From an uncultured archaeon (GTDB lineage: Archaea; Asgardarchaeota; Lokiarchaeia; Sigyniarchaeales; SOKP01), in assembly GCA_964493715.1 (NCBI GenBank), contig CAZBPC010000002.1, positions 4,814 through 68,813 on the forward strand: a stretch of DNA of 64,000 nucleotides. Direction: 5' to 3'. Below the pieces are notes generated by a model, which was not told the origin of the DNA, did not search any database, and saw only the letters and a list, made by a program, of their open reading frames with translations. Of the stretch, positions 20,853 through 44,791 are shown one piece after another (within the stretch, counting starts at the first letter, position 1; each line of letters begins with the position of its first letter). The translations under genes were made by a program, and so were the position numbers.

Positions 20853-21431
20853 TTAAAACTCTAGAAAGCCTGGATCATCAAAAATGTCTTCGATTTTCTT
20901 TTCCCGCTTTACTTTACCTTCAGTTTCATCAAATAATGAATCTTCATCAGTTTTTATACCTTTTTCAAGTTCAAGAGTATCTAATTGCTGTAAAGCTCCC
21001 TTTTCAAGTTGTTTATACTCTTCGGATTTCATGCGCCAATGATTAGCATCTTCTAATTTATTACCTTCTTCCTCTTCCAAGGCGATTGCTGCTTTTGCTC
21101 GGCAAATGTCTGATAAAATAGAATATGATAATGCCAATTCACCCCATTCATTCCCTTTTTTTAATTTAAAGATTCTTTTTTCTAATCTTTGTAACTCTTG
21201 GTCTGCATAATAAACATCGATGAAATCCCCAAATGCATCAACTGGTTCAGATATGGAATTTACTATTACATCCTTATTCAATCCACAATATCCACATTTA
21301 ACCGTTGCAATAGCAGATTTTCTTATATTTTCTACTTTGACGGATTTTTCTCCGCAATTAGGACATGTAAAGATCTTTGGTACTCTCTTTACTCGTTTGT
21401 ATGATTGCTGCTTTCTTTTTCTTCTTCCCAT
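20853..21431 (-). CDS. elf1: Transcription elongation factor Elf1 homolog with long acidic coiled-coil C-terminal extension
   Basis: A basic N-terminus MGRRKRKQ, then FTCPNCGEKS...KCGYCGL...SEPVDAFGDFIDVYY, matches the Elf1 zinc-ribbon family pattern. 192 aa. Confidence 0.8.
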   Translation of the reverse strand: MGRRKRKQQSYKRVKRVPKIFTCPNCGEKSVKVENIRKSAIATVKCGYCGLNKDVIVNSISEPVDAFGDFIDVYYADQELQRLEKRIFKLKKGNEWGELALSYSILSDICRAKAAIALEEEEGNKLEDANHWRMKSEEYKQLEKGALQQLDTLELEKGIKTDEDSLFDETEGKVKREKKIEDIFDDPGFLEF

Positions 21432-26180: not shown

Positions 26181-27290
26181 ATTTCTAAATTAAAAGATGA
26201 TCTTGAAAAGAAAGTAATATTTACGGATGACGTTATTAGAGAAAGACTTGGGAAATATGGTGTGGTATACTTTCCGGAAGATATTAAAGAATCCGTTGAT
26301 GATATATTAGGGAATGCAAAGATAAAAGAAATACTTGAAGATTTCTTCAAAGCTTTGAACAAGTATTATGATTTTGTGGAACAGTTAAAAAATACCAATT
26401 TAGCTCCAAATCTCACAGTACTTTTATATGGTCCTCCAGGAACAGGCAAAACCTCACTAACTAGAGGATTTGCAAAAAAATATGGCGTGCCAATATGTGT
26501 AGTTGAATCAGATCGCCTTGTTTCACCGTTATTAGGAGATACAATTAAAAACATAAGAAATGTGGTGGAGTTAGCTTCAGAAATTTCTAAAGAGAGAGGT
26601 GCTTTTGTTTTATTTTTTGATGAAATTGATGCTGTTGGTTCAGAACGATCCAACACACATGAAGTAGGAGAAATCAAAAGAGCTGTCATTTCGTTTTTAC
26701 AGGTAATTGATAGAGTAAATTATGAAGGTGTACCATTAGCAATATTCGGAGCCACAAATCACCAACATCAATTAGATTCAGCAATATGGAGGCGCTTTAC
26801 ATTTCATTTTAGATTTGATTTTCCGGATTATAATTTAAGAAAGAAGATAATTGAAGCTTTTTTAGATAAAATCAAACAAGCAAAAATAGGTGTTGATAAT
26901 CAAATTTTTTCTAATTTAAATGAGGAATATAATCGTATGCAAAAAATTGAAAAAGAAATTACAAATAAAATGGGGCAGAACGTCACTGAATTTGATGATA
27001 TAATATTATGGAATGAAATTTCCAAGAAAATTAAAGGAGAGGGGTTATTAAAATTGACTCACGGATATTCTGGATCTGATATCGAAAGAGGAACTAAAGT
27101 TGCATTATTAAAAGCGATTACTATCGAACTCCTAACTTACGATCTATTCTATGATTCCTTAAAGTTAGTTGGAGGTACAGCAATTCATGTCGAACGTCAA
27201 AATACTCTAGCAACTACGAGAGGATTCATATTAAAAGATGAAAGAAATGAGAAAAAATCTAATAGGGATAATAAACCTCCTGAAATTTAA
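26181..27290 (+). CDS. Operon gene 5: classical-clade AAA+ ATPase (start probably ATT at 26181; first GTG at 26262)
   Basis: Walker A LLYGPPGTGKT, Walker B FFDEIDAV, second region of homology GATNHQHQLDSAIWRRF, and YSGSDI near the C-terminus. No MIT or other N-domain. Confidence 0.8.
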   Translation: MSKLKDDLEKKVIFTDDVIRERLGKYGVVYFPEDIKESVDDILGNAKIKEILEDFFKALNKYYDFVEQLKNTNLAPNLTVLLYGPPGTGKTSLTRGFAKKYGVPICVVESDRLVSPLLGDTIKNIRNVVELASEISKERGAFVLFFDEIDAVGSERSNTHEVGEIKRAVISFLQVIDRVNYEGVPLAIFGATNHQHQLDSAIWRRFTFHFRFDFPDYNLRKKIIEAFLDKIKQAKIGVDNQIFSNLNEEYNRMQKIEKEITNKMGQNVTEFDDIILWNEISKKIKGEGLLKLTHGYSGSDIERGTKVALLKAITIELLTYDLFYDSLKLVGGTAIHVERQNTLATTRGFILKDERNEKKSNRDNKPPEI

Positions 27291-27329
27291 TCCTTTAATA
27301 TATGAATATGATAATAAAATTGATGAAAA

Positions 27330-28370
27330 ATGTCAAAAGATTACATTCTTGATTTAAGTAGAATAAAAAGTATCACACAACCTTTATTAACCCTCCAAAA
27401 TGGATTAGGGTCCCTTTCCCCTTTATTAGAGCAAATAGAGCAATCGAAAAATGGTTTTCATAAAATCCTCTTTTTAAATATGGATAAACAACAATTTAAT
27501 CAGATAATAACTCTAATTCAAGAATTACATAAGGAATTAACTCAAATAACACACAAAAATATCACTAATTTCCTTGCTTTTCAAGATAATTTGTTGAAAA
27601 AATATAGGGAGCAATATAGAGATCGTTTATTAAGATTGAAAATCGACCAGGAAAAAAGTAAAAACCTTGGCCTTTACTTAATTGGTCAGAAAAAAATAAG
27701 CAAGGTAGATCATCAGATTTCCTACGTTAACTCTATTATTCTGGATGACTGGTTCAATCTTTTAGATTCTTTAAATCAAAACTCTAATTTTTTGAGTTTA
27801 ATCCCTAAAATAAGAGATTATTACAAAAAAATCACTCACAATAGATTAAAAATGGAATTAGAAAAGATACCTGAGGAATTTGATGTAATGATCAAACGTG
27901 AATTCAAGAATGCTTTTAATGAAGATCCTGATTTATCTTTTGAACAATTTTTCAATGAAAATGAAAAGATGTTAACTGCTGCCGATTTAAACACAAGAAG
28001 AGAAGTGTTACAAAGAGTCAAGGAAAAAGAAGAATTAGAAAAATTAAAATTAAAGCAAGAAGAGCAAAATCAAGGTTATAAAGATTACTTAAAATTATCT
28101 GCAAAAGAATTTGAAAGGCGAAGGAGAAAAAAATCAAGAGAAAAATTAAGTGAGATTGATATTTCTTCCAACCCAAAAGAAGAAATAGAAATTAGTAAAG
28201 AAGTATCTGAGAAAATAGAACAATTTAAATCACAATTCGAAAAAAAATTTCAAGATGATTATTTAACAGGATTAGATCAAGAACTAGATCCACTAGATTT
28301 AATTAGAGAAAGGAAAAAACTGAAAGCTGAAGAGTTTAAGAAATTCAAAAAACATTTTGATCAGGAATGA
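27330..28370 (+). CDS. Operon gene 6: K/E-rich coiled-coil protein
   Basis: 346-aa ORF with a highly charged C-terminal half. No recognisable motif. Confidence 0.5.
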   Translation: MSKDYILDLSRIKSITQPLLTLQNGLGSLSPLLEQIEQSKNGFHKILFLNMDKQQFNQIITLIQELHKELTQITHKNITNFLAFQDNLLKKYREQYRDRLLRLKIDQEKSKNLGLYLIGQKKISKVDHQISYVNSIILDDWFNLLDSLNQNSNFLSLIPKIRDYYKKITHNRLKMELEKIPEEFDVMIKREFKNAFNEDPDLSFEQFFNENEKMLTAADLNTRREVLQRVKEKEELEKLKLKQEEQNQGYKDYLKLSAKEFERRRRKKSREKLSEIDISSNPKEEIEISKEVSEKIEQFKSQFEKKFQDDYLTGLDQELDPLDLIRERKKLKAEEFKKFKKHFDQE

Positions 28371-28374
28371 ATAA

Positions 28375-29991
28375 ATGACAGTTGAGGATGAACATAAACA
28401 AATAACTATAGGAACGCAGAAATATAATATCCAAGATAAGTTAACATTGATATTAGGAAAGATTAAAGACGATGACTTAATCTCATTTAAGGATGAAAAT
28501 TTAGTTGATTTAATCACAAATTTAGATCCTTTACCAGTAGAGAATATTATTAAAAATCTAAAATCAGTTTACCCCGTTATCACAAAATCGATCAATCTCT
28601 TGAAATACTTAAAAGATTATATTAAAACTATCGAATTAAATACTGAAATTATATCAGATTATAATAAATTGGCTCAGAAAATCATTCTTTCATTTCAATT
28701 CGTATTTCTGAACAATGAAAAATCTCAACTCAATGACGAATTAGAGATCGCAAAATTATCCAAGCAATCAAGTGAAATAAAAGCAATTTCAGATTTATTG
28801 GAGAAGTTAAATGAATCTTTAGCACATAATAAAACCAATTTGACTTATTTAGAGCAAGATTACCAAAAAAAGAAAAATCAAATTGATAAAATAAACCAAG
28901 AAATCCAAAATGCAAATGATATTATACAAAGCTTGACAAATAAGAAAAAATTATGTTTTAGGTATATCAATAACATCACACGTAATATGGATTTATCATC
29001 AAAATTAATAATTAATGAAGCAGAAATCAATTCAACATTAGATTTAGATCCTGATTTAACCAATGCTGAAAAAATCAGAAAACTGCAAATTAAAGCAAGA
29101 GAAATACAGCATGACATAAATCAGCATAAATTAAAAATAGACGAAACTAAACTTAAATATGACAATTTATCACCCCAATTTAAAATAATTAGTGAGGATT
29201 ATGAAAAACTTGTTCATTTGATTGAAGAAGATGAAAATAAAGTAAAAAAAAAAGAACATAAACTGAAAGATATGATATCAGGATTAGATCCTAAAATGAA
29301 TGAAAAATTACAAAAAATTGATTTTAGATCTATTCAAACCCCCTCCCAAATAGAATCAGAATTATCAAATATTGAATCGAGATTAAATACAATTTTAACA
29401 AACGAAACCTTCATCCATGATAATTCTTTTATTAAAGTCGAGGAGGTAATAAAGGAGCTTAATAAATTAATTATTTATTCAAAGAAAAATAAAAACCAAA
29501 TTACAATTTCTGATGCAAATCAAAAATTCACCGATATGTTTGAAGGCTACTTCACATTAGAGTCTATTGTTAGTAAATTAGAGGAAATACTTAATTTACT
29601 ATTAAGTGAGATAGATTTACGAGTAAACTTAGAAATATCAATTACCGAAGGATATACAAAATTATTAATTCATCCTCAATTTGCCAGAAATAAGGCACAA
29701 AATTTACAATATGATGACTTAACGACCCCCGAAAAGATATTTTTCGTAATTATAATGTACATATCAATAAAAATGCTCCAAAAATCAAAAACAATACTTT
29801 TTTCAAATGTTTTCATTCCCGAATCTTATAATAAGCGAGGATCGATATTTAGAACAATTAGAAGGTTAGTCCAAATTTTTGAGAGAAATTCTTATTTCAA
29901 TGATTATACTATCGTCTTTATAATTTCAAATTTAGAATTGAAAAAACAAATGGAAAATATAAAAATAATAAAAATTAAAGAAAGTGATTAG
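28375..29991 (+). CDS. Operon gene 7: SMC/Rad50-like coiled-coil protein with degenerate ABC-ATPase head motifs
   Basis: 538 aa. The N-terminal KLTLILGKIKDDD sits where IVGPNGSGKS would be. A coiled coil of about 350 aa follows. The C-terminal LTTPEKIFFVIIMYISI...ILFSNVFIPESYN...YTIVFIISN parallels LSGGEK...ilDEpd..LD...viTH with the catalytic residues replaced. Confidence 0.45.
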   Translation: MTVEDEHKQITIGTQKYNIQDKLTLILGKIKDDDLISFKDENLVDLITNLDPLPVENIIKNLKSVYPVITKSINLLKYLKDYIKTIELNTEIISDYNKLAQKIILSFQFVFLNNEKSQLNDELEIAKLSKQSSEIKAISDLLEKLNESLAHNKTNLTYLEQDYQKKKNQIDKINQEIQNANDIIQSLTNKKKLCFRYINNITRNMDLSSKLIINEAEINSTLDLDPDLTNAEKIRKLQIKAREIQHDINQHKLKIDETKLKYDNLSPQFKIISEDYEKLVHLIEEDENKVKKKEHKLKDMISGLDPKMNEKLQKIDFRSIQTPSQIESELSNIESRLNTILTNETFIHDNSFIKVEEVIKELNKLIIYSKKNKNQITISDANQKFTDMFEGYFTLESIVSKLEEILNLLLSEIDLRVNLEISITEGYTKLLIHPQFARNKAQNLQYDDLTTPEKIFFVIIMYISIKMLQKSKTILFSNVFIPESYNKRGSIFRTIRRLVQIFERNSYFNDYTIVFIISNLELKKQMENIKIIKIKESD

Positions 29992-29997
29992 AAATTT

Positions 29998-30495
29998 ATG
30001 GAAAATCAAGATATTGAAACTACTGTTAGAAAAATAACAAAGCTCATTTTAACAAATCCTCAAAAATTAATAAGAGAAGAAGACTTGAAAACTTTAAGTA
30101 GCGAGCAAGATTTTGAGGATCTTATAAGTAAAGTTTACATTAATTTACAAAATGTTGGATTTGAATTAATCAAAACAAAATTTTTTGACCAAAGCTTCTA
30201 TGTGTTAACCACCGATGGCATGGATGACACTATCTCACCCTCTCAATATGGAATATTAGCTTTAATAACTGCTCTTAGTAAAGAACTAGAAGAAAATTTA
30301 CCAATAAAAGATATTAAAGAATTATTTGCCGAAGTATGGGATTCAGACGTTAAATTGTTAATAGATAATGATTACTTAAGAGAAAATGAGGATTTAGCAA
30401 TTATTAGAGTTTCTCCTCTTGGAAAAGCCATACTAAAGAATATAATTCAAGATCTAAGATTAAAAAACTTGTTAAATGTTTTTGAAGAAGAATAA
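29998..30495 (+). CDS. Operon gene 8: tandem winged-helix protein, ScpB/kite-like
   Basis: 165 aa. The first WH ends in GFELIKTK...FYVLTT. The second begins ISPSQYGILALITAL...IKDIKELF..., paralleling the ScpB pattern LSxAxLEvLAiIaY..It..eIeeirG. Confidence 0.4.
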   Translation: MENQDIETTVRKITKLILTNPQKLIREEDLKTLSSEQDFEDLISKVYINLQNVGFELIKTKFFDQSFYVLTTDGMDDTISPSQYGILALITALSKELEENLPIKDIKELFAEVWDSDVKLLIDNDYLRENEDLAIIRVSPLGKAILKNIIQDLRLKNLLNVFEEE

Positions 30496-31043: not shown

Positions 31044-31682
31044 TTAAGAAAGGAGTAAATTAATCAAATTAGATATATTCTCTCCAGTCTGTGCGCTTGT
31101 AGGAATTACTTCTAAATTAGGATTAATCTCTTTTGCATCTAAAATCATTTCGTCAATATCTACATCAATAACATCTAATAAATCGATTTTATTAATTATT
31201 GCTATATCTGACATCTTGAATAGCAAAGGATGTTTTTTTATCACCCATTCTCCTTCTGTAATGGATACAACGACAATTCTTTTATCAGCACCTAAAATAA
31301 AATCAGATGGGCAAATCAAGTTTCCCACATTTTCAATAAAAACAATATCATAATTACTTAAATCGATATTTTTTAGCACTTGATTGATATGATAAGAATT
31401 TAAAGCACATTCCCTTCCAGTATTTATTTGAATCGATTTTGCCCCATATTGTTCGATCCTGTCAGCATCAATTCTTGTTGCAACATCACCATTAATAACA
31501 AGTACGTTGTTATCATTAGAAATTTTTTTAACGATTGCCTCTAGTAAGGCAGTTTTACCTGCTCCAATAGCACCTACAATATCAAACGATTTTATATTAT
31601 GTTTTCTAAATAGTTCACTATTTTTGGATGCTAATCTCTCATTATTATCGATTAAGTCTTCATTTAACTCAATAATTTTCAT
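31044..31682 (-). CDS. hypB: Hydrogenase nickel-insertion GTPase HypB
   Basis: 212 aa. GAIGAGKTALLE P-loop, ENVGNLICP and NKIDL motifs. Confidence 0.85.
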   Translation of the reverse strand: MKIIELNEDLIDNNERLASKNSELFRKHNIKSFDIVGAIGAGKTALLEAIVKKISNDNNVLVINGDVATRIDADRIEQYGAKSIQINTGRECALNSYHINQVLKNIDLSNYDIVFIENVGNLICPSDFILGADKRIVVVSITEGEWVIKKHPLLFKMSDIAIINKIDLLDVIDVDIDEMILDAKEINPNLEVIPTSAQTGENISNLINLLLS

Positions 31683-31709: not shown

Positions 31710-32636
31710 TTAGTATCTACTTCTTATTTGATATCGAAATACAACATAAGCTCCAATGATTCCACCTAAATCAGGGAGATAGTATATGAAAGAGAGAGGG
31801 CTAAATAATACTGGGAAAATCCTCAGTAATATGATTATAATTAATAAGGTTTTTCCTTTCAACCTTACTGGAATGATCATCATTAGCGCTGTTATTTCTT
31901 GATTCATTACGGGGAATATTGAATATGAAATTAAACCTAAAATACCTCCCCATGCGAATCCTATAGGAATTGCCACTAAATTTATTGGTGCAATACTAAT
32001 TAATGAAAATCTTAAAAGGATAAATAACAAAAGAGAAAAAAAACTTGATATCATAAAAAGTTTGAAAAGAAAGGATGATCCAAATCTTATTTCAATAGAT
32101 CTGGAGAGCAAATACGTGAAAAATAACATTATCGCTAAAAAAAATATATCAATAAATGCATAGTAGCTAAATAAATTAATTTCTGTAATGAATAGAGAAG
32201 TGAGAATCGTTTGAAATGCGTAATTATTTATTAATCCATTCAAACTAAAATAAATAAATAATTGAAGATTGTTTGCTGCAAAGAATGATGCAACTATGGA
32301 AAAGACTAAAATAAAAATTAATAGTGTTTTTGTCCCTCTAAAATTCGTGCTCCAATTATTTGAGCGTTTTACTCTTGGTAAATAATTTTGGTCTTGCCGT
32401 TTTAAGTAATTATTCAATTGTTTTTGCTGCTTGGACTTAGATTTTATTTTTTTTGGTTTAATAAGTAAAGGATCCCCTCCAGTAGAAGTCTTCGGTACTA
32501 AGGGGATATGCTTTAATTCAAACGTACACTGATGATTCTCAGGTAATCTATGCTTCTTACAAAATTGTTTCCCGCAGTATTTGCACCGAAACGGTAAATA
32601 TCCAATTTCTTCTCCACAAAATTTACATAAGGACAT
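31710..32636 (-). CDS. AN1 zinc finger fused to a rhomboid-like (apparently catalytically inactive) membrane domain
   Basis: The N-terminus CKFC-x10-CKYC-x4-CKKH-x5-HQC is a perfect AN1 pattern. The membrane domain has the rhomboid-like SIEIRFGSSFLF segment. It has AWGG where GxSG is expected and LPDLGG where AHxGG is expected. Confidence 0.55.
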   Translation of the reverse strand: MSLCKFCGEEIGYLPFRCKYCGKQFCKKHRLPENHQCTFELKHIPLVPKTSTGGDPLLIKPKKIKSKSKQQKQLNNYLKRQDQNYLPRVKRSNNWSTNFRGTKTLLIFILVFSIVASFFAANNLQLFIYFSLNGLINNYAFQTILTSLFITEINLFSYYAFIDIFFLAIMLFFTYLLSRSIEIRFGSSFLFKLFMISSFFSLLLFILLRFSLISIAPINLVAIPIGFAWGGILGLISYSIFPVMNQEITALMMIIPVRLKGKTLLIIIILLRIFPVLFSPLSFIYYLPDLGGIIGAYVVFRYQIRSRY

Positions 32637-32734
32637 TAGATAGCGATATTCAAATATATTAATTTAAAAATATCATGAAACTCATTGATACTCTATAATT
32701 ATGGTTTATAAAAAAATGATTCTGTTAAATTTTA

Positions 32735-33670
32735 TTATATCGGGATATATGGATTCGATCCAACTGGGGCATATATACTAATCAAGGTTATAACTAATAA
32801 TACCGTTAAAGGTACTATGAGAGTGATATAAACTTTTTTGCTCCATTTCCAGATATTCTGACCATCTAAAATTCCAAAGGGGATCATGTTAAATAAACCA
32901 AGCATGAAATTAAATTGAGCTCCATATCCAATAAAATAATTCAAGGGATATAATACAGGGGGTATTATGTAAGAAATTAATAATAGAATAGAACCATAAA
33001 TCAAATTAACAAGGGGTCCAGCAGCTTTACATAATCCTGTTTTCCTACTTACTTTATCTAACCCTAAAACGACTACCGCTCCGGGTAAAGCCATTCGTCC
33101 CAATGATATTAACGTCATGAGCATCCCGTAAGTAAGCAATCTGAATTTTGTTTGCAAGCCAAAATGAAGTGCTACCTGCCGGTGACCAAATTCATGGAAG
33201 AGAAAAGCGGTCACGTAAAATGCTGAAAGCATGAACCAAGCCCAAATTAAACCATATGATACCACGTCAAAAAACGACACAAGTCCAATAATAAATATTA
33301 GAGTGCTTGCGATCAGAAAATGCACTAATTCCGATTTATGTGCTAATAGAATCCCTTTAAATTTTATCCCCGAATTCGGATCAAATGCATTATCAGGAAT
33401 TTGTTTTTCTTGTTTATACCACGTATATGTACCGTCAGTGGTTCCTCGAATTATAGAACTTCCTGATTCATTTTCAACCATAGATGATCGAATTGAGGAA
33501 GTGACTGATTGAGGGCTTGCTTGAAATATTTGAACAGTTGAAGATTCTTTAACTATATTACATTCATGGTCTATTGGATCTTTATGAAGAAAACAATAAT
33601 TCTGTCCACATTGAATACAATTATGTATTTCTGGAACAACTTCTCCGCAATGGTAACATATTGGTATTAT
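32735..33670 (-). CDS. AN1 zinc finger fused to a site-2 protease (M50) domain; N-terminal AN1 part lacks a canonical start codon
   Basis: HEFGH and NMIPFGILDG M50 motifs. The in-frame upstream 63 codons encode CYHC-x9-CIQC-x4-CFLH-x5-HEC (perfect AN1). The only candidate starts are ATA (33670/33667), 5-8 nt after GAGGT. Confidence 0.6.
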   Translation of the reverse strand: MIPICYHCGEVVPEIHNCIQCGQNYCFLHKDPIDHECNIVKESSTVQIFQASPQSVTSSIRSSMVENESGSSIIRGTTDGTYTWYKQEKQIPDNAFDPNSGIKFKGILLAHKSELVHFLIASTLIFIIGLVSFFDVVSYGLIWAWFMLSAFYVTAFLFHEFGHRQVALHFGLQTKFRLLTYGMLMTLISLGRMALPGAVVVLGLDKVSRKTGLCKAAGPLVNLIYGSILLLISYIIPPVLYPLNYFIGYGAQFNFMLGLFNMIPFGILDGQNIWKWSKKVYITLIVPLTVLLVITLISIYAPVGSNPYIPI

Positions 33671-34094
33671 GAAAAACCTCTTTATGATAATTTAATAAAA
33701 ATATAATATATATTATGATATATAATTTGATATATAAAATTCCATGCTTTTAATTGTCATCAAAATAGATTTATTAGGTCGTAGTTGGATAAATTAATTA
33801 TATTCAAAATTATTGATCTGGATAATAAGAAATTAATTATGAGTGATGAAGAAAATAAACCGACTTCTGAGGATATAAAAAAAGAACGAAAAAATTTAGA
33901 AGAGCTAGGAGTGACTAGCACATGGAATCTTTTATCTGATTTAGCAAAGAAAAAAAAAGATGATGATTAAAGATTCTTATCAAATCTTTTAAAATTCACA
34001 ATTGCTTTTTTGGATTCAAAAAATAAATTAAAGAAGAATAATTTTAGAAAATAATAAAAACATCAACATTTGGTCGATTAATACGGGGAAAAAC

Positions 34095-34313
34095 GTGGTC
34101 TATTGTCCAGTGTGCGAAGCAAACGTAGAGCTAAGGCGTAAAAATTTTGAACATATCTACCACGAAGTATTATGTTTTTTGGTTACACTTACCGCAGGCC
34201 TAGGATTCATCGTCTATCTTATTTTAAAATATAGTAAACCGAAAAATCGTTGCCCAAATTGTGAGTTACAATTTGATTTAAACAACCTACCCAATATATT
34301 GGAGAAAAATTAA
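34095..34313 (+). CDS. Small zinc-ribbon membrane protein
   Basis: 72 aa. CPVC...CPNC pairs flank one hydrophobic helix. Confidence 0.45.
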   Translation: MVYCPVCEANVELRRKNFEHIYHEVLCFLVTLTAGLGFIVYLILKYSKPKNRCPNCELQFDLNNLPNILEKN

Positions 34314-34591
34314 ACATCAACTACTTTTACCTTCATTTCCTTCTTACATCGTGGGCAAATCTTATCGTTATCTTTAAGGTTTTTCTTTCTTAATATTTTT
34401 TTATACTTACACTTCGAATCTGAACAAGTTAATACAAATTTAGTTAATAAATGTGAGTCCTTATTAGTTTCTACAACTGGTGGTTGAAATTCGAATTCCT
34501 CAATTTTATCTTCTATTTTTCTTTTTTTTGGAGGTTTCTTTTGAACTTTTTTGTTATCTCCATTATCTTTTATCCATTTATCTAAGCTCAT
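34310..34591 (-). CDS. Small lysine-rich zinc-ribbon protein
   Basis: 93 aa. Basic N-terminus, with CSDSKC...CPRC at the C-terminus. Confidence 0.45.
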   Translation of the reverse strand: MSLDKWIKDNGDNKKVQKKPPKKRKIEDKIEEFEFQPPVVETNKDSHLLTKFVLTCSDSKCKYKKILRKKNLKDNDKICPRCKKEMKVKVVDV

Positions 34592-34734
34592 AACATAACC
34601 ACTGATTTTATAGCATTTATTCGATCATTGTAATATTACATCTAAATATTATTACTTCATCTTGCTACAAATAATATAATTCTGATCTATATATAAAAAA
34701 ATAGTAAAAATAAAAATTAGGTTTGATTAGAGTT

Positions 34735-35976
34735 CTAAAAAACTTGTTCTTTCCCTTCTATTAAACGTTTTCTTAAAAGTATTAAGCTTTCTTTTCTCAA
34801 CATTTCTTCACTTACTTCAGCCGCTATTTTTTCAATGCTTGTAAAGTTCACATTTTCAGCTGGGATCAATTCAATTGAATTTATCCAAGGGTCAGTTATG
34901 GGACGACCAATCTGAGATAGTAGTTTAACATGTGCCTCTATGATATCTCCTTCTCCTCGGTTTACAATCGCTCTGGCCATGTTTGTTGCTAAGATATTGT
35001 ATATTTTTCCGACATGATTAATCGGGTTCTTTCCACAAACAGCTTCTAAACTCATTGTACGGCAAGGAGTGATCAAACCATTCGATCGATTTCCACGACC
35101 AACTTCACCATCATCACCAGCTTCTGCAGAAGTTCCTGTAATTGTAAGATATACTAATCCCTTTTCGAGGTTATCGCCTACATTTACTTGACAAGTGACT
35201 TCTCTATCTGGAATTATTTTTGCTGCTAAATCCAAAACTGCATCTTTAATTTGGTTAGTGTAGCTTACATATTCATCAAGATCATTAATGTATTTGCTAA
35301 CCATTGCTGCTGCGATTGTAATTCCTACGTTATTCCCAATCCTTTCAGTCATTACCTTTATATCTTCTCCTGAACCTTTACACTTATCTTTAAATTGTGG
35401 AGAATTTAGTAATCTTTCCGCTTCTAAAGTTATATTCTCAACATCAGAGAAGGGAGCAAAACCTACACCGAAACTTGTGTCATTTGCTAAAGGAACTTCA
35501 TTAGAATGATGCGATGAGTCAAAAACTCCTGTCAAGTCAATTGATCCTGGACGAACAGCATAATCAAATTGTATATCTCGATTTAAATCAAGGTTTCTAA
35601 AAATTTTTTCTAATTCAGTTCGTTGGGTTTCGATGCATATTGTCGCAACGGGAATATAATCTAACTTAGTTTCAGTTCCACACTCAGTAAGAATCTGATT
35701 GATAGCTCTCCCTACGATTAGAAAATATTGAGGTTGGATTATCATCCCTCCACCATAAGCAGGTTTCGCAGTTCCTCCAACTAAAGCTGCTTTATCGACA
35801 TTATGATGGTATACGCGATCATAATGTTTTAAATAATATGCACATAACGCTCTTGAGCAAGCATCTGCGACAGCATCACATACAGTGTCTGGATGCCCTA
35901 TTCCTTTCCTTTCAACTATTTCGGGATTTTGACTTTTTTCGATTGGTAAAAAATTTGCATTTGTTATTTTTAACAT
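34735..35976 (-). CDS. mat: Archaeal-type S-adenosylmethionine synthetase
   Basis: 413 aa. The N-terminal [11 protein letters not shown] motif and length are typical of archaeal MAT. Confidence 0.85.
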
Positions 35977-36150
35977 GTTGCTAAACCAAGTTCTTATACA
36001 TATAACTATGTTTTTATTTTAACTATGTTTTTAAATTAATGAGCTTATTTAATAATTATTGAAATGAAAATATCTCTGCAGCATTTTTTATGCATTCAGA
36101 TTATACTAAATAAATTTTATGGATAAGTAATTAGAAATAAAGAAAGAGTT

Positions 36151-36720
36151 ATGAAAATCTTACCAGAATTTAAGGAAATCAAAGCTTTGAGGAAGTCTTT
36201 GAATATCAGCCAGAAAGAACTTGGAAAAATCTTAGAAATTCCCCAATCTACAATTTCTCGAATTGAAAATGAAACCATGGATCCTCCATATTCTAAATTT
36301 AAGAAAATTTACGAATTTTTAGAGATAGAGCGTAGAAAGAGAAAGCAAACAGAAAATATCGCTGGTGATATTATGACAAAAAAAATTTATAGCATTGACT
36401 CGCGCTCAACAATGAAAGATGCGATGGAAATAATGAATAAATATAGCATTTCCCAAATACCAATAATAGAGAATAATGGGCAGAATTTAGGGAGTATAAC
36501 TTCTAAAAAAATCCAAAAACTCATCATTGATAACCCAGAACTTATTAATACCAATGTATTGAATTTTAAAGAATTACCGTTTCCAGAGGTAGAAAAAACT
36601 TGGAATGTTAAGGATATTTCAAATCTTTTGGTGAATTATTCAGCTGTTTTAGTAAAGGAGTTTGATGAATATTTGGGAATCATAACTGATTCGAATTTTC
36701 TTAAATTAACTTTAAGGTGA
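36151..36720 (+). CDS. XRE-type HTH plus CBS-domain regulator
   Basis: The N-terminal LNISQKELGKILEIPQSTISRIEN is HTH_3-like. The C-terminal half has tandem CBS-like segments (IMTKKIYSI..., ISQIPII). Confidence 0.7.
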   Translation: MKILPEFKEIKALRKSLNISQKELGKILEIPQSTISRIENETMDPPYSKFKKIYEFLEIERRKRKQTENIAGDIMTKKIYSIDSRSTMKDAMEIMNKYSISQIPIIENNGQNLGSITSKKIQKLIIDNPELINTNVLNFKELPFPEVEKTWNVKDISNLLVNYSAVLVKEFDEYLGIITDSNFLKLTLR

Positions 36721-36787
36721 TGTGAATCAATTTTAAATCAAAAAAAGAATTTTTTAAGTAATTCATATTTCTAGTAATGTAGATATT

Positions 36788-37792
36788 ATGGATGATATTC
36801 TTGAAAAAATAAATTTCATTTTGAAAAAAGCTAATTTTGAAACATTTTTACTTAATAATTTCTATGAAAAAAAGAATAAATTTTGTTTTGATCTGTTAGC
36901 AAAAAAGCAAGGAACTATTTTTAGTGTTAAAATATTTTCAAATATTGATAATCTTAATAAAGACTTAGTAAATGATATTAAATCACTGTCAATCTTGCTT
37001 AAATCAAAACCTTTACTGATAGGTCTTAGAAATAGATACCAAAACTTAGAGGATAATGCTCTATATATGCGATATGGATTGCCTTTTATTTCGATTAATA
37101 CATTTGAAAAAATTATAGAAAATGACGAATATCCATACATATTAGCTAGGAGAGGAGGTGGCATTATTTTCTTGGATGGGCAACTTATGAAATTAAAAAG
37201 AGAATCTGAAGCAATCTCACGAAAGGAGCTTTCAGAGAAATTGGGTGTTACGAAAAGAACAGTTTGTGCCTATGAAAATGATAGTATGCGGCCTTCAGAG
37301 AGTATTGCTTTAAAAATTCTTGAATTATTACATGATAATATGATCCTAAAGAGAATGAATCCATTTGGCTGGAAGATAAAATTTGACTTTAAAGAAACCT
37401 CTATTAGTGAAGAAAAAGATTTAAACCCTTTTGAAACTCATATACATGACGTCATTGAGGATATTGGAATGTCAACATATTGGTATAGTAAAGGACCCAT
37501 CCCTTTCAAATTTTCTATTTATTCCCCTTCTGAACCCCAGGTTAATGTTTATCCAATCTTTTCAGGGATCTCTGAAGAACAAAAAAAAATATCAGAAACT
37601 AATTTAAAATGCTTGAAAATATTCACAAATTTATTTCAGAAAAAAAGTCTATTAATTGTAACCAACGAAATTAAAGTAACCGATACTATTAAGCAAAACT
37701 TTATTCCAATTGTAAAAATTAAAGACTTAGAAAAAGTAGATAACGAAGATGAATTTATTGAACTCGTCAAAGGAACGACAAACAACATCTAA
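36788..37792 (+). CDS. Conserved archaeal protein with central XRE-type HTH
   Basis: 334 aa. Central ISRKELSEKLGVTKRTVCAYEN HTH motif. Confidence 0.5.
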   Translation: MDDILEKINFILKKANFETFLLNNFYEKKNKFCFDLLAKKQGTIFSVKIFSNIDNLNKDLVNDIKSLSILLKSKPLLIGLRNRYQNLEDNALYMRYGLPFISINTFEKIIENDEYPYILARRGGGIIFLDGQLMKLKRESEAISRKELSEKLGVTKRTVCAYENDSMRPSESIALKILELLHDNMILKRMNPFGWKIKFDFKETSISEEKDLNPFETHIHDVIEDIGMSTYWYSKGPIPFKFSIYSPSEPQVNVYPIFSGISEEQKKISETNLKCLKIFTNLFQKKSLLIVTNEIKVTDTIKQNFIPIVKIKDLEKVDNEDEFIELVKGTTNNI

Positions 37793-37793
37793 A

Positions 37794-38483
37794 TTGATTT
37801 GTGGATTAGATGAGGCTGGCAGAATATAATTCGTATCGAATGATATGTTAACAGGACCTGTTCTAGGCCCAATGGTTATTTGTGGTGTTTGTTTCCTCGA
37901 AGAAAATATCCAATCTCTAGAAACTTTAGGAGTGAAAGATTCAAAAAAACTAACTATAAGAAAAAGAACCGAATTATCCGCAATATTAAAATCAATTTGC
38001 TTTTCTTATCAAAATGTTATAATTTCTCCTCAAGAAATTGATGAGAGGATTTCATTGAGAATTTCATTAAACCGACTTGAAGAATTAAAAATGGCCCAAA
38101 TACTGAATCATCTAAAGCCAGAGTTAGTATATATAGATGCCGCTGATGTGAGAGAAGAGCGATTTGGACGGTCTATAGCTAAATTATTAAATTATTCACC
38201 AAAAAAAATCATTTCCAAACATAAAGCTGATGATCTTTACCCAATAGTTTCAGCTAGCTCAATTATTGCTAAAGATATGAGAGATAGACTCATTGAAGAA
38301 CTAAAAAAAAATTATGGAGATTTTGGTTCAGGATATCCCTCAGACGAACGTAGTACGACATTTCTTCGAAAGTGGATAATAGATAATAAGAAAGCTCCAC
38401 CTATTGCAAGAAAATCATGGGAAACTACGAAAAAAATAATAAGAGAAGAAATATTTAATAAGAAGATTACTGATTATGTATAG
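37794..38483 (+). CDS. rnhB: Ribonuclease HII, interrupted by a 30-nt BHB mini-intron (exons 37794-37822 and 37853-38483)
   Basis: A TTG start gives MICGLDEAGR, followed by an in-frame TAA-containing 30-nt insert and then GPVLGPMVICGV. The joined sequence reproduces the universal G(I/L)DEAGRGPv.GPmV motif. The spliced ORF is 219 aa. Confidence 0.85.
37823..37852 (+). other. Putative bulge-helix-bulge intron in rnhB mRNA (30 nt)
   Basis: UGGC[AG|A]AUAU-A-AUUCG-UAU-CGAAU-G-AUAU GUUA[AC|A]. Central helix UGGC/GUUA (2 Watson-Crick pairs and 2 G.U), two 3-nt bulges, and a 9-bp inner stem. Excision joins AG|A GGA to give DEAGR-GPV. Confidence 0.6.
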
Positions 38484-38546
38484 ATATATTGTAAGATTAA
38501 TTTAGTTTGAAGAAAAATAAAATTTCTTACAGAAGTATTATTTAAA

Positions 38547-39236
38547 TTATTTGTGGGCAACTAAAATGATGTGATTTGCTGCATATCTGTGAATATTTAA
38601 GTTTTCAATTATTTCATAACCTGCCTTTTCCAAAGTCTTTTTCTCTTGAAGATAAATTTTTTCAGGCTTTTGAACACTATCAATTGATTGAGATTTGATT
38701 GCAAGAATTAGAAGTCCTTTATCCTTTAGATAATAATTGCAGTTCGCAATGGCAATTTGTGCTTGGTTTGGTTGAGCTATATCTTGATAAACTAAATCAA
38801 TTTTAGTAAAAACAGAATTAGCATATTTTTCGGGAAAATTAGCATCTCCTAAAATTGGAATAATATTTTTTCTTTTGTTAGTATTCTGAATCAACTGTCG
38901 CATGCTACGTTCAGCAAATTCTACTCCATAGATAATTCCATCACATACTATGTCTGAAAGGTGAGATATTGTTGTACCTGACGATGCTCCTAAATATAAG
39001 CATTTTAATTCACTTGATAAAAAATCCTCTAAAGGTTTTTCCAATATCATTGCAGCTAATTTACTTCTATAAGGATCCCATTCTCGATACTCTTCTCCTT
39101 TAAATGTAACTAACTTCTCCCCGTACACTTTATTACCAGAAACTAAGTTTTTAGAATAAAGTTTTAGGTTATTTGGAGGACCAGATATATAAACATTAGA
39201 ATATTTTGGATGTGCTCTAATGCTTTCGTTGCTCAA
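38547..39236 (-). CDS. flpA: Fibrillarin (C/D box sRNP 2'-O-methyltransferase)
   Basis: 229 aa. REWDPYRSKLAA and LYLGASSGTTISHLSDIV motifs. Confidence 0.9.
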   Translation of the reverse strand: MSNESIRAHPKYSNVYISGPPNNLKLYSKNLVSGNKVYGEKLVTFKGEEYREWDPYRSKLAAMILEKPLEDFLSSELKCLYLGASSGTTISHLSDIVCDGIIYGVEFAERSMRQLIQNTNKRKNIIPILGDANFPEKYANSVFTKIDLVYQDIAQPNQAQIAIANCNYYLKDKGLLILAIKSQSIDSVQKPEKIYLQEKKTLEKAGYEIIENLNIHRYAANHIILVAHK

Positions 39237-39237
39237 A

Positions 39238-40461
39238 TTAATTTTCCCTCCTTCTTTTTTTATTTAATTGCTTTTTATTTGGTTTTATTTTTGGCTCACT
39301 TTTTTTAAGTGGGGGTTTTGTATATTTTTTTTCAAGCTCTTTTATTTTTTCTTCAACTTCGTTTGCTAAAGTTTCTCCTATGAACTCACCATTAAAAAAA
39401 TCTACTTTAGTGGCAATTCCTATTTTCCCTGAAATAACTCTAGAAATCTTTCCACGGTTATATGCTTTACTTCCTCTAATCAAATTCCATTGAAAAATTA
39501 AACCGTGTTTGGGTCGTTTTTCACCAGTTTTAAGGAATCTATACAAGGCTTTTTCAGCTCCTAAAAGTTGAATCCTCGAAGCTGGCATATAAGCTAAGTT
39601 TTTTAAACTTCCTGCTTTTGATATCAATTTTGCTCCTATCAAACTTCCAATAAGTTTAGTAAGATTAGGTGCCGCTTGAGTCATTAAATCTTCAAGATAT
39701 TCCTCCAATACTTCTCGAAAGGCATCTAAATCTAATATTTGTCGAGCGTATTTTTTAATTATAGAAAGATCTAAATCTGCTCCCATAGATCGGGCTGCTA
39801 AATCTTGTAGCATTTGAGTTCGTTTATCTGTAAAAGTAAAATATTCACTAATATTCTCAACAGTATAATTATCTCGATGACCTAATTTGTCAACCATTTT
39901 AGCCAAGATTACATTATCCTCAATTAATTTATCAGTTAATTCCGGAAAATGTAAACCATACCATTCCTTTAACCGGCTTGCAAATAAACTTATTGATTTC
40001 TTTAAAATATCGAGGGATTCGATCACTTGAATTATTATTAAATCTTCTTTTCCCCCTGCTTCTTTTATATTAGTTTTGATTAATTTTTCTTGCACATGTT
40101 TAAAATGCAATGAGATTTCATTAAATTCAAGGTAATTTCCTATTTTTTTTAGCTGTTCTGTCAAATTAAATCGAAAATTTCTGAATTCCAAGTTTTCAAT
40201 AGCATGAGTCGTTTTTAAATCTAATGTCTGGTTCGTAATAGTTGCTAATGCCTCGTTATCAAAAATTAAAACATCAAACCCAGCGGCACTAATTTCTTGG
40301 ACAAATTGTTCAAATTCTTTACTGATAATATTTTCCTTTAATCCATTGAAAAAATCAATAGCTTTATTTTCATTTTTACTAAAATCAATAAAATTGATAA
40401 TTGTTTCTCCTTCGTCCAAGGCATAGATTCCTAATAATGTATCAATTACAAAACACTTCAT
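39238..40461 (-). CDS. nop5: Nop5 (Nop56/58) C/D box sRNP core protein
   Basis: 407 aa. NOP domain motifs (LGAEKALYRFLKTGEKRPKHGLIFQ), a lysine-rich tail, and an operon with fibrillarin. Confidence 0.9.
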   Translation of the reverse strand: MKCFVIDTLLGIYALDEGETIINFIDFSKNENKAIDFFNGLKENIISKEFEQFVQEISAAGFDVLIFDNEALATITNQTLDLKTTHAIENLEFRNFRFNLTEQLKKIGNYLEFNEISLHFKHVQEKLIKTNIKEAGGKEDLIIIQVIESLDILKKSISLFASRLKEWYGLHFPELTDKLIEDNVILAKMVDKLGHRDNYTVENISEYFTFTDKRTQMLQDLAARSMGADLDLSIIKKYARQILDLDAFREVLEEYLEDLMTQAAPNLTKLIGSLIGAKLISKAGSLKNLAYMPASRIQLLGAEKALYRFLKTGEKRPKHGLIFQWNLIRGSKAYNRGKISRVISGKIGIATKVDFFNGEFIGETLANEVEEKIKELEKKYTKPPLKKSEPKIKPNKKQLNKKRRREN

Positions 40462-42409: not shown

Positions 42410-44791
42410 CTATATCATTAATTCAAACTTTTTCAAGTAAAAAAACTTAATCTGATCGTTCAACAAAAGACATGTTACAAATGTATAACCTATTATAAAT
42501 AAAATTGTTATTATAGGTATAGGAGTAATTCCTGGCAGCCCTATTGAAGAAAGTAATAATATAATAATGGAATTAATAATAATCACAATAGCTAAAGGTT
42601 TACTCGGTTTTGAATTCCAAAAGTGCTTTCTTTCTCTAACGGTGAGTACCGTAAAATATCCTGAATACACCAAAAACACAAGTACAAATGTATGTAAGGC
42701 ATTTACATTTCCCAGTATTCCAAACATTAAATCCCCAATAAAGACTAGAAATATCCCCTCAATAACCATTAGAACGCCTAAAATCGCTCCTATTTTTACC
42801 ATTCCGTTAACATTCCAAGTTTCTGGTTTTTTAGAATAACGAACATTATCGGTAGAAAGAGATAAAGTGACATAATCACTTAAAAACAAAAGAATGATAA
42901 TATCTAAAGCAGAAACAATATAAATTCCAAAGATAACAAAAGCAAGAATTATAAATAGTACTCGTTTAAATGTTCTAATCATTTTATTTATTATCCAGGT
43001 TGCAATCCTTTGATAAATCATTCTTCCTATTATTATTAAATCAATGATACCCTCTAACCCCTCAGTAGTAAGCACCGCACTTGAAGATTTCTTTGCAACA
43101 TCTGTAGCATTACTAACAGCTATTCCAACCTCTGATTGCTTTAGCGCAGGAGCGTCATTGACGCCATCTCCGGTCATACCAACGATATGATTATAATTTT
43201 GTAAATCTTTTACAATTAAATATTTATCTTCAGGATAAATTTCAGCAAATCCTATGGCATTTTCAATAATATCGTTTTTATCTTTATCTGTTAAACTTTT
43301 CTTTAATTCTGTTATTCTGATTACATTTTTACCTAAATCAAGCTCCGATGCAATCTCTTGTGCTATAGGTAAAGCATCTCCCGTTAAAATTTTTACAGAA
43401 ATACCTAAATCATTAAGTTTCTTGATTAATTGGGAGGCATTTTCTCGAATTTTATCATATAGCATTACATATCCTACCAATCGTAAATCTTGCTTTTGAA
43501 TCCCATATGCAACAGCAAGAAATCTATATCCTTTTGCTATGTAAGAATTAATTTCTTGAGTTATATTATCAAGTTCAATAAAATCATTTTGAACTAAATC
43601 TTGAATTTCCTTTACAGCACCTTTAAAAACGTAGAATTCAGCATTATTTTTTTTAATGAAAGCTTCTGTTTTTCTTGTTGATGGATCAAAAGGGATGAAA
43701 TATTTTTGCTCACAGTCATTAATTTTTATGTTTTTATATTTTGTCATCGATATAAAAGCATAATCAATGGGATCTTGGTTTGCTTCTTGAGATGCCAAGG
43801 CTCCATAGAAGAGAACATCATTTTCTTCAAATCCAGGACGTGGTAAAATCTTTACAATAGAAAGTTTATTAATAGTGAGAGTTCCGGTCTTATCCACACA
43901 AACAATATCCATAGTTGAAGCATCTTCAGTTGCATCCAACCTTGTTATTAATACACCTTTTTTAGATAATTCCAAAGATCCTAAAGCCATACTTAATGTA
44001 AACATAGTAGGCAATGCAACGGGAATAGAAGCAACTAAAAGTATTGCAATTAAAGGGAGAATCTGGAACACAAATTCAATTCCTTTTAACAATGATATGC
44101 TTATTGCTATAAATATTGATATAAATACAATTGCAAGAAGCCACTTAACTACTTTTGATATAATTTCTTGAATATGGAGTTTAGGTTTAGCAATTTGAAC
44201 AAGTTCAATAGTGCGTCCAAAAAAAGTTTTCGTTCCAGTTTTAGTAATGAATCCTGTAATTTCTCCACGTTTTACAATGGAGCCTGAATACAACTCATCA
44301 CCTTTTTTTTTCTTAATAGCCATGAATTCTCCCGTTAATGTAGATTGATCTATTTCCAAATTGCCCTCTAATATATTTAAATCGGCCGGAACGAAATCCC
44401 CGCCTCTTAATCTTACAATATCGCCCGGAACTAACTCTCTTGCAGGAATTAATGTCCAAACTCCATCCCGTTTAGTCCGTGCTTTAATACTAAGCTTTTC
44501 CTTAAGAAGATCCACTGCGCTATTAGCTTTCTCTTCTTGATAATAACCGATTATAGCATTAAACAGGAGAAGCCCCATAATTATATAACCTTCAATATAT
44601 TTACCTAATAGGAATTCTAATATAATCGTAAATTCTAACATCCATGGAGTAATACCCCAGAATTTTTTTAAAAATTTTTGAAGTAAGTTTACTTTTTTTT
44701 CAGGAACCTCATTATAACCATATATATTTAATCTGGTCTTAATTTCCACTAAATCTAATCCCTTTTCTAAATCATTAGAAATTAAATTCAA
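42410..44791 (-). CDS. P-type cation-transporting ATPase (type III H+-ATPase-like)
   Basis: 793 aa. TGE-like LTGEF, phosphorylation site CVDKTGTLT, and MTGDGVNDAPALK hinge. Confidence 0.85.
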   Translation of the reverse strand: MNLISNDLEKGLDLVEIKTRLNIYGYNEVPEKKVNLLQKFLKKFWGITPWMLEFTIILEFLLGKYIEGYIIMGLLLFNAIIGYYQEEKANSAVDLLKEKLSIKARTKRDGVWTLIPARELVPGDIVRLRGGDFVPADLNILEGNLEIDQSTLTGEFMAIKKKKGDELYSGSIVKRGEITGFITKTGTKTFFGRTIELVQIAKPKLHIQEIISKVVKWLLAIVFISIFIAISISLLKGIEFVFQILPLIAILLVASIPVALPTMFTLSMALGSLELSKKGVLITRLDATEDASTMDIVCVDKTGTLTINKLSIVKILPRPGFEENDVLFYGALASQEANQDPIDYAFISMTKYKNIKINDCEQKYFIPFDPSTRKTEAFIKKNNAEFYVFKGAVKEIQDLVQNDFIELDNITQEINSYIAKGYRFLAVAYGIQKQDLRLVGYVMLYDKIRENASQLIKKLNDLGISVKILTGDALPIAQEIASELDLGKNVIRITELKKSLTDKDKNDIIENAIGFAEIYPEDKYLIVKDLQNYNHIVGMTGDGVNDAPALKQSEVGIAVSNATDVAKKSSSAVLTTEGLEGIIDLIIIGRMIYQRIATWIINKMIRTFKRVLFIILAFVIFGIYIVSALDIIILLFLSDYVTLSLSTDNVRYSKKPETWNVNGMVKIGAILGVLMVIEGIFLVFIGDLMFGILGNVNALHTFVLVFLVYSGYFTVLTVRERKHFWNSKPSKPLAIVIIINSIIILLLSSIGLPGITPIPIITILFIIGYTFVTCLLLNDQIKFFYLKKFELMI

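Follow-up and report, generated by a model that had tools for sequence, protein, structure and literature searches.

The window analysed here, that is the whole 64 kb stretch of contig CAZBPC010000002.1, is low-GC DNA (ca. 30%) of an Asgard archaeon, and the named homologues of its genes of interest all come from Promethearchaeota, Lokiarchaeota, Thor-, Hermod- or Hodarchaeota. It carries two tandem genes on the minus strand, designated gene A and gene B, each of which encodes an AN1 zinc finger followed by a membrane domain of the intramembrane-protease type (Table 1). When all six frames of the window were scanned for the AN1 ligand pattern C-x2-C-x9-12-C-x1-2-C-x4-C-x2-H-x5-H-x-C, two matches only were found, one in each of these genes. 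A first, sequence-only reading of the region had proposed that these neighbours join AN1 to intramembrane-protease folds of two distinct kinds, and the analyses presented below agree with this proposal: the product of gene A belongs to a family of rhomboid pseudoproteases found, among named members, only in Asgard archaea and that of gene B is predicted to be a site-2 (M50) metalloprotease (S2P).

Table 1. Coordinates of genes A and B, of their sequence features and of selected neighbouring genes in the window (TM, transmembrane helix; aa, amino acids; pLDDT, predicted local distance difference test)
Feature	Position	Strand	Basis
Gene A, whole: rhomboid-fold pseudoprotease of 308 aa with N-terminal AN1 finger and basic linker	31710..32636	-	Open reading frame, ATG start
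Gene A, six-TM rhomboid-like core, residues 100-308	31713..32339	-	pLDDT mostly >90, Foldseek, hhalign
Gene A, TM2 residues F166 and M170, replacing the His/Asn oxyanion pair (GlpG H150/N154)	32127..32141	-	Column mapping
Gene A, EIRFG, the E-x-R-x-G motif of rhomboids, kept at the turn between TM2 and TM3	32079..32093	-	Aligns with GlpG VEKRLG and with canonical rhomboids
Gene A, TM4 motif GFAWGG, residues 226-231; W229 (codon 31950-31952) in the catalytic Ser column (GlpG S201)	31944..31961	-	Column mapping
Gene A, R272, arginine within TM5	31821..31823	-	Invariant in orthologues, variable in canonical rhomboids
Gene A, TM6 motif LPDLGG, residues 287-292; D289 (codon 31770-31772) in the catalytic His column (GlpG H254)	31761..31778	-	Column mapping
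Gene A, AN1 zinc finger, residues 4-37	32526..32627	-	Exact ligand pattern, Pfam zf-AN1
Gene A, basic, predicted cytosolic linker, residues 41-99, including a conserved YLKRQ[E/D] helix	32340..32516	-	14 K+R versus 2 D+E
Gene B, whole: M50/site-2 protease preceded by an AN1 finger and a linker; 310 aa with ATA as first codon	32735..33667	-	Homology, Pfam M50
Gene B, HEFGH zinc-binding/catalytic motif	33182..33196	-	H158, E159 and H162 invariant in the family
Gene B, NMIPFGILDG with third zinc ligand D268	32861..32890	-	N260, P263 and D268 invariant; within the Pfam M50 match
Gene B, AN1 zinc finger (CYHCGEVVPEIHNCIQCGQNYCFLHKDPIDHEC N-terminus)	33560..33658	-	Exact pattern, eight ligands invariant in the family
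Gene B, invariant juxtamembrane segment RGTTDGTYTWY.QEK.IP..AFDP.SGI, ca. 40 residues	33329..33448	-	Many invariant columns
Gene B, ATA in place of the initial Met codon of homologues	33665..33667	-	Alignment with homologues
AAGAGG, Shine-Dalgarno-like element upstream of the ATA	33677..33682	-	AA[G/A]AGG kept in ATA-start lineages
HypB nickel-insertion GTPase	31044..31682	-	TIGR00073 equivalog, 239 bits (cut-off 121); functional link to gene A unproven
Single-domain AAA ATPase	26262-27290	+	PDB relatives Cdc48/p97 D1

Several lines of comparison place the membrane domain of gene A among rhomboids. The Pfam search proposed with the sequence-only reading returned zf-AN1 for gene A and M50 for gene B as expected, whereas the Rhomboid family (PF01694) was not seen in the window gene A protein taken alone and zf-AN1 in gene B stayed below its cut-off. 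PF01694 matched 19 of 37 orthologues when these were scanned singly, all weakly (best 2.3e-6). An AlphaFold2 model built from the family alignment (mean pLDDT 79.7, most core blocks >90) displays six transmembrane (TM) helices plus the L1 helices, with an L1 of ca. 38 residues, and its top 15 Foldseek matches in the PDB are all GlpG or Der1 (target TM-scores 0.51-0.69; by target, 0.57-0.69 for GlpG and 0.55 for Der1), so that the structure prediction yields a GlpG-type fold, in line with the rhomboid-like topology of the first reading. In an exhaustive search of 1.84 billion representative proteins with a profile of the TM domain only (E <=1e-3), 137 proteins were matched and canonical rhomboids were recovered at E-values down to ca. 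1e-7; the weaker matches (ca. 35-48 bits) are mostly such canonical rhomboids, with H..N, GASG and AHLGG, that align column for column with the family. Alignment of the family to 24 canonical rhomboids by hhalign gave a probability of 99.6% (E 2e-24) over 193 columns. The xIExRFGSxF segment on which the rhomboid-like assignment had been based corresponds to SIEIRFGSSF (residues 180-189) and contains the E-x-R-x-G motif, of which E182 and G186 are invariant among orthologues. Further along, the LGGIIGA stretch of TM6 carries a small-residue packing motif (G291-x3-G295, G292-x3-A296), and the protein ends ca. 8 residues past this helix (…VVFRYQIRSRY). Since the PF01694 matches in orthologues, the AlphaFold and Foldseek results, the exhaustive profile search and hhalign agree, the assignment is considered settled: by fold and by homology, gene A contains a rhomboid-type membrane domain.

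Mapping of the catalytic columns was bridged through the canonical rhomboids recovered in the exhaustive search, because two more direct routes could not provide it: the gene A family profile hidden Markov model (HMM) compared to PDB sequences retrieved AN1 domains only, with no rhomboid at E <=10, and hhalign against a single approximate GlpG sequence gave a 33-column local match around ExRxG with a probability of 1.7%. In the bridged alignment S201, H254, H150 and N154 of GlpG correspond to W229, D289, F166 and M170 of gene A, and none of the four residues is kept. GFAWGG and LPDLGG had thus been correctly located at the catalytic sites and no intact Ser-His dyad is present. The absence of the TM2 His/Asn pair had also been rightly deduced, yet from the wrong position, as FITEIN covers residues 149-154 and the true columns lie ca. 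15 residues further on. The replacements show conservation of their own: over 90% of the orthologous set share W229, each of the 37 aligned orthologues has D or E in the His column, and P288, L290, G291 and G292 are invariant. The TM5 arginine R272 might conceivably be a buried partner of D/E289. As judged from these columns and from the purifying selection described below, gene A encodes a real rhomboid pseudoprotease, which cannot work as a rhomboid serine protease.

The same columns were compared across the more divergent relatives. In the Ser column W (21 sequences) and S (17) are the most frequent residues, followed by N, Y, G, T, I and others; the 17 relatives that retain Ser at the nucleophile position are devoid of the His, whose column holds D/E, S, N or Q. 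Because the Ser column varies whereas His was never seen, loss of the His looks ancestral to the family and the Ser appears to have been lost several times later. This distribution parallels that of the zinc finger. The finger is recognised by an AN1 HMM in 56 of the 137 representatives. The His column could be aligned in 44 AN1-bearing relatives and holds a His in none of them, and all 38 representatives that possess both Ser and His are without AN1.

Gene A is functional and under purifying selection rather than decaying, with pairwise dN/dS values of 0.11-0.24 between the window and five related lineages. Its best-conserved segment is the AN1 finger (mean frequency of the major residue 0.89), and within the membrane domain conservation is higher in TM4 (0.80), TM6 (0.76) and TM5 (0.74) than in TM1-TM3 (0.59-0.69). 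In real rhomboids the active site and the lateral gate are built from TM4-TM6. The conservation of these helices and of the replacement residues fits a possible new function for the old active-site cavity.

In total, 326 homologues of gene A were collected, of which all named ones are Asgard, as is every representative with a source name in the 137-protein set. A scan of one genome per GTDB species yielded 91 loci confirmed by tblastn, 80 of which were retained; these 80 are Asgard metagenome-assembled genomes or "uncultured archaeon" bins, and include Thor-, Hermod-, Hod- and Odinarchaeota labels. The survey of phyletic distribution that had been suggested therefore finds the Asgard AN1-rhomboid family, as far as members are named, only in Asgard archaea, and the best explanation is that the gene pair is core, vertically inherited and found only in this group. 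Lower-scoring AN1 clades (60-90 bits, with "SQW" motifs) were considered as possible paralogues or eukaryotic pseudoproteases, and both possibilities were rejected: all named members are Asgard and the three that were checked occupy the same syntenic slot, as divergent orthologues. The AN1 finger is present in every complete gene A family member checked. NCBIfam holds no model for the protein of gene A or of gene B.

The AN1 finger of gene A matches the ligand pattern C-x2-C-x10-C-x2-C-x4-C-x2-H-x5-H-x-C exactly and scores 43.1 bits against Pfam zf-AN1 (PF01428; cut-off 27.9) over residues 4-40. Among PDB sequences, the family profile retrieves the AN1 domain of a plant SAP at 3.7e-9 and that of Cuz1 at 4e-8. 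In the AlphaFold model, the linker that follows the finger contains a helix at residues 67-84, and pLDDT is low over residues 40-63. From the basic character of this linker and the positive-inside rule, the finger is predicted to be cytoplasmic.

The M50 motifs HEFGH and NMIPFGILDG of gene B had been described as intact and proved to be invariant in the family as well. Peptidase_M50 is matched at 34 bits (cut-off 27.2), and the family profile matches the S2P structure of M. jannaschii (3b4r) at 1.1e-6. With these signatures gene B is predicted to encode a catalytically competent site-2 (M50) metalloprotease. It resembles known site-2 proteases (M. jannaschii MJ0392, SpoIVFB) by its HExxH and NxxPxxxLDG motifs and its Pfam M50 match, and differs from them in having no PDZ or CBS domain and in carrying an N-terminal AN1 finger, or in one lineage an FHA domain. 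Between the AN1 linker and TM1 lies the conserved juxtamembrane segment, which has no family match and is modelled with pLDDT <50. Pfam zf-AN1 scores 18.5 bits in gene B (cut-off 27.9), and the assignment of the finger is supported by the match of the family profile to AN1 structures (E 0.005), by a Foldseek match to Cuz1 AN1 (probability 0.97) and by PF01428 entries on record for many gene B homologues.

The start of gene B requires comment. The mechanically derived open reading frame (ORF) begins at the ATG at 33481 and encodes 248 aa; in frame upstream of this position, the AN1-coding part contains no ATG, GTG or TTG start. Homologues begin with MPICYHCG, and the codon of the window that matches their first residue is ATA. 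The sequence-only reading had given gene B as 32735-33670, beginning with a perfect AN1 finger; the finger is indeed in frame with an exact pattern, whereas the start is the ATA at 33665-33667 and not 33670. The same codon is found at this position in L005/L010, L008 and L009, as compared to ATG in 61 other loci and TTG in three. In the four ATA lineages the AN1 codons contain no stops or frameshifts, all eight ligands are retained, and dN/dS over 40 codons is 0.02-0.44; the internal Met used by gene callers is not conserved among relatives. Because the ATA and the Shine-Dalgarno-like element are conserved and the AN1 codons are intact, we conclude that the finger of gene B is most likely translated from a conserved non-canonical start. 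A sequencing error was considered as the cause of the missing start and was rejected, as the ATA recurs in four separately assembled lineages. With such a start, gene callers shorten gene B to 245-248 aa and miss the AN1 finger, and the public gene calls for the lineage of the window are accordingly truncated (P0121, 245 aa), with the finger cut off.

The association of the two genes was assessed by tblastn on the loci of GTDB species representatives, 72 of which had enough flanking sequence. In all 72, the gene immediately upstream of gene A is a gene B homologue in the same orientation, and in 70 HypB follows gene A directly downstream. Across the paired loci the gene A proteins are only 35-50% identical, and the same arrangement occurs in very divergent orthologues that score 60-80 bits against the TM-domain profile. 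At one locus, from a divergent Asgard lineage (L089, 6001-8610), the order is flipped, with the M50 gene downstream of the rhomboid-like gene; the two are still adjacent and HypB is no longer next to them. In the M50 protein of this locus an N-terminal FHA domain replaces the AN1 finger, and the HExxH, ALPGA, AGPLSNL and FNMIP…LDG signatures of the family are retained, which suggests that the cytosolic N-terminal domain may be an exchangeable protein-docking module. At another locus (L090) the adjacency of HypB is interrupted and the A-B pairing is kept. The conserved pairing supports a functional link between genes A and B, and because adjacency survives the rearrangement at L089, such a link is favoured over frozen gene order.

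The reading that we favour, and to which we give roughly even chances, is that the dead rhomboid binds or destabilises TM clients and cooperates with the S2P protease, the two AN1 fingers sharing a partner. Gene A would act as a non-catalytic partner that binds clients or thins the membrane; it would recognise TM segments and either pass them to gene B or regulate gene B, and both AN1 fingers would dock the proteins to the shared cytosolic partner. The physical or functional coupling of the two proteins, the hand-over of substrate and the nature of the AN1 partner are what we infer in this scheme. Cooperation with the S2P protease is proposed because iRhom-ADAM17, Derlin-Hrd1 and YqgP-FtsH show that rhomboid-fold proteins can serve a second enzyme. 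As in the iRhom1/2-ADAM17 pairs, a pseudoprotease with a cytosolic N-terminal regulatory region, long in iRhoms, would accompany a metalloprotease, of which iRhoms are obligatory non-catalytic partners. Gene A differs from iRhoms by having no iRhom homology domain, no seventh TM helix and no GPxG motif (GFAWGG contains no Pro, and L1 is short), and the metalloprotease is here an intramembrane S2P and not an ADAM sheddase. The closest prokaryotic likeness in organisation is B. subtilis YqgP, a rhomboid with a cytosolic N-terminal domain that serves in quality control as substrate adaptor of another membrane protease, FtsH, in the control of the transporter MgtE (PMC7231995). YqgP is active and its partner is an AAA protease, whereas gene A is catalytically dead and gene B contains no ATPase.

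A number of observations weigh against this cooperation. HypB lies closer to gene A (27 nt downstream) than does gene B (98 nt), and a block of ca. 10-13 kb of unrelated housekeeping genes is also syntenic, so that the pairing may in part be due to frozen gene order. In the B-A spacer (32640-32735, minus strand), a T7 run is followed by the TATA-like element TTTTTAAATTAATATAT ca. 25 nt before the ATG of gene A, suggesting that gene A, perhaps together with HypB, may have its own promoter. Finally, the AlphaFold model of gene B has a pLDDT of 67 and its top Foldseek match, SpoIVFB, reaches only E 1.8 with a TM-score of 0.3.

Part of these observations form the basis of the alternative that survives best, which we nevertheless regard as rather unlikely: genes A and B would be unrelated neighbours in a slowly rearranging housekeeping region, each AN1 protein acting alone, gene A for instance as a scaffold, a lipid-distorting chaperone or a regulator. 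The syntenic block, which comprises AdoMet synthetase, the LITAF-like zinc ribbon, HypB, Lsm and the AAA operon, is conserved across Lokiarchaeial, Hermod and Thor loci from the synthetase to that operon. Equally tight adjacency (70/72) is shown by HypB, whose role in hydrogenase maturation suggests no evident connection, and probable separate promoter and terminator signals occur between B and A. HypB proteins are ca. 70-88% identical across loci, far above the values for gene A or B. What argues for cooperation rather than mere neighbourhood is that adjacency is kept at 72 of 72 loci in spite of the 35-50% protein identity, that it outlasts the L089 inversion after which HypB is no longer adjacent, and that the two proteins share a rare N-terminal domain, theirs being the sole two AN1 fingers in 64 kb.

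The sequence-only reading had gone further and seen a Derlin-like logic, that is a possible forerunner of endoplasmic reticulum-associated degradation (ERAD) in which the pair would form a module for dislocation and quality control and the AN1 domains would recruit a Cdc48-type unfoldase or the proteasome to a Derlin-like dead rhomboid, so that membrane proteins are pulled out and broken down. This explanation is judged unlikely. Like Derlins (Der1, Dfm1, Derlin-1/2/3), gene A has a six-TM fold devoid of the catalytic dyad and a small-xxx-small motif in TM6; Derlins are non-catalytic partners of another membrane enzyme and offer a cytosolic handle for a degradation machine, and the host is an Asgard archaeon. 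The specific Derlin traits are missing. DER1 (PF04511) was not among the 25 of 29 families listed at E <=1 for the 37 orthologues, at most one match being possible, and was absent at E <=0.01 for ten divergent members, which had only Rhomboid and weak DUF1751 matches; likewise, GlpG structures match better than Der1. The L1 WR motif of Derlins is replaced in the gene A family by [H/Y/W/Q] plus an invariant T (Q142-T143 in the window), these columns holding W and then R/Q/T in canonical rhomboids. Gene A also has no C-terminal tail that could bear a p97-binding SHP box, its handle being the N-terminal AN1; its neighbour is an S2P protease rather than a RING E3 ligase and its host is prokaryotic. 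The epithet "Derlin-like" is consequently best kept as an analogy, and the loss of activity in gene A looks independent of that in Derlins. Earlier work moreover derived Der1/Dfm1, and with them the Derlin arm of ERAD, from the bacterial symbiont (PMC2691004).

The AN1 fingers were the second element of the ERAD-like argument. Those of genes A and B match the fingers of eukaryotic AN1 proteins (Cuz1, ZFAND1/2/5, plant SAPs) in sequence and fold, including those of Cuz1, the "Cdc48-associated ubiquitin-like/zinc finger protein 1", and of ZFAND5, solved on the proteasome. In eukaryotes these fingers occur in soluble adaptors, combined with A20, UBL, UBX-like or UIM elements, whereas here AN1 is fused directly to polytopic membrane domains. 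To describe AN1 fingers as p97 adaptors, as had been done, is loose: in Cuz1, ZFAND1 and ZFAND5 it is the 26S proteasome that the AN1 domain touches, and separate UBL, UBX-like or VIM elements bind Cdc48/p97. To our knowledge archaea have neither Rpn2/PSMD1, the target of AN1, nor the other proteasome lid and base subunits that AN1 domains bind, and this counts against an ERAD-like recruitment.

The only AAA ATPase encoded nearby has a single domain. The best PDB relatives of the AAA protein at 26262-27290, four genes from the pair and within the conserved block, are Cdc48/p97 D1 domains (E 1e-34), and archaeal Cdc48-20S complexes are documented (cited in PMC13328587). The same AAA protein, which gave the only PADLOC match near the pair, also resembles the defence ATPase IetA (1e-58), its score staying below the NCBIfam IteA cut-off. 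It belongs to a conserved convergent operon at 26262-30495 (plus strand), probably starting from 21603 and separate from the A-B pair, in which it is followed by proteins of 346 aa, of 538 aa (SMC-like coiled coil) and of 165 aa, none of which could be assigned to a family. We regard it as a candidate AN1 partner and not as evidence for one. We found no gene for Cdc48, PAN, the proteasome (20S) or a ubiquitin-like protein in the set of scanned ORFs, which covers positions 1-30500 and 34000-39300 of the window and the P-type ATPase at 42410-44791, the only gene considered in the ca. 39.3-64 kb part. The wider version of the ERAD-like explanation, an Asgard precursor or analogue in which AN1 plugs both the dead rhomboid and the S2P protease into a Cdc48/PAN-proteasome or ubiquitin-like system, is less likely still.

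A role in metal homeostasis appears very unlikely. In such a module AN1 would sense Zn or Ni and regulate the membrane proteolysis of transporters, for which the position of HypB (70 of 72 loci, with the 27-nt gap in the window) and the several small zinc-ribbon proteins of the block could be invoked, along with YqgP, which has a metal-binding N-domain and is a precedent as an adaptor towards FtsH in MgtE control (PMC7231995). The adjacency of HypB is lost at L089 and interrupted at L090, however, and the A-B pairing stays in both, and the zinc of AN1 is structural, held by eight Cys/His ligands. We know of no AN1 finger that acts as a metal sensor.

That gene A is still an enzyme with an unconventional active site, such as Asp/Glu289 with another nucleophile, is highly improbable: the conservation of W229 (>90%), D/E289 (100%) and R272 (invariant) and the Ser kept by 17 His-less relatives would be compatible with it, but in the window protein the nucleophile is replaced by Trp and the oxyanion pair by Phe and Met, orthologues have W, S, N, Y, T, G or I in the Ser column, a diversity that would not be expected of a catalytic residue, and we know of no rhomboid-fold enzyme that dispenses with the Ser-His dyad.

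The AN1-rhomboid architecture itself is already known from haloarchaea: H. volcanii RhoII (HVO_0727) combines an N-terminal AN1 finger with six TM segments (PMC4343526), as gene A does in another archaeon, and is treated as an active rhomboid protease (PMC9263693). The Asgard family differs from RhoII, regarded as a Ser-His enzyme, by the loss of the Ser, the His and the TM2 His/Asn pair, and no S2P pairing has been reported for RhoII. RhoII-type AN1 proteins with a His were not among the 137 profile matches, the Asgard family being too distant from them. In a literature search confined largely to journals outside subscription, no description was found of a diversified, Asgard-only and catalytically dead AN1-rhomboid family, an earlier computational mention being possible, nor of the perfect association of AN1 with His loss in this sequence space, nor of the invariant pairing with an AN1 (or FHA) S2P protease. 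Taken with the data above, this suggests that the A-B pair may be a previously undescribed membrane-proteolysis module. In public databases the gene A proteins are annotated as "AN1-type zinc finger domain-containing" only or, wrongly, as "rhomboid family intramembrane serine protease" (P0007 and P0038 are among those with an incomplete or wrong annotation); two misannotated proteins, P0288 and P0299, lack the catalytic His, P0288 being also without the Ser that P0299 retains.

Rhomboid pseudoproteases (Derlins, iRhoms, UBAC2, TMEM115) have been treated almost solely as eukaryotic inventions, and a family of dead rhomboids in Asgard archaea, whose function is so far deduced, bears on the debate over the origin of ERAD. 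If true, the ERAD-like explanation would mean that the principle of combining a rhomboid pseudoprotease with an adaptor for an AAA unfoldase is older than eukaryogenesis. The AN1 finger, which in eukaryotes marks proteasome and Cdc48 adaptors, occurs in all complete members checked of this dead-rhomboid family, whose constant neighbour is an S2P protease with AN1 or, in one case, FHA, and this raises the questions of whether a dead rhomboid can serve an intramembrane metalloprotease and of what an archaeal AN1 finger binds.

The other genes scanned in the window are of housekeeping type and encode Orc1/Cdc6, the PolD small subunit, RtcB, RNase HII, fibrillarin and an archaeal SAM synthetase, together with a three-domain protein of the eRF1 family (aRF1 or Pelota). 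Zinc-binding proteins occur at several other places: the gene at 7829-9970 (minus strand) encodes 713 aa that include a C2H2 zinc finger of eukaryotic type, and that at 20853-21431 (minus strand) a 192-aa Elf1-like zinc-ribbon protein. LITAF-like zinc ribbons are membrane-inserted and typical of eukaryotes. A 72-aa protein composed of a CxxC, a hydrophobic helix and a second CxxC (34095-34313, plus strand) matches this family at 24.3 bits (cut-off 23.8) and is kept within the syntenic block of locus L001; a second small zinc-ribbon protein is encoded beside it at 34310-34591 (minus strand).

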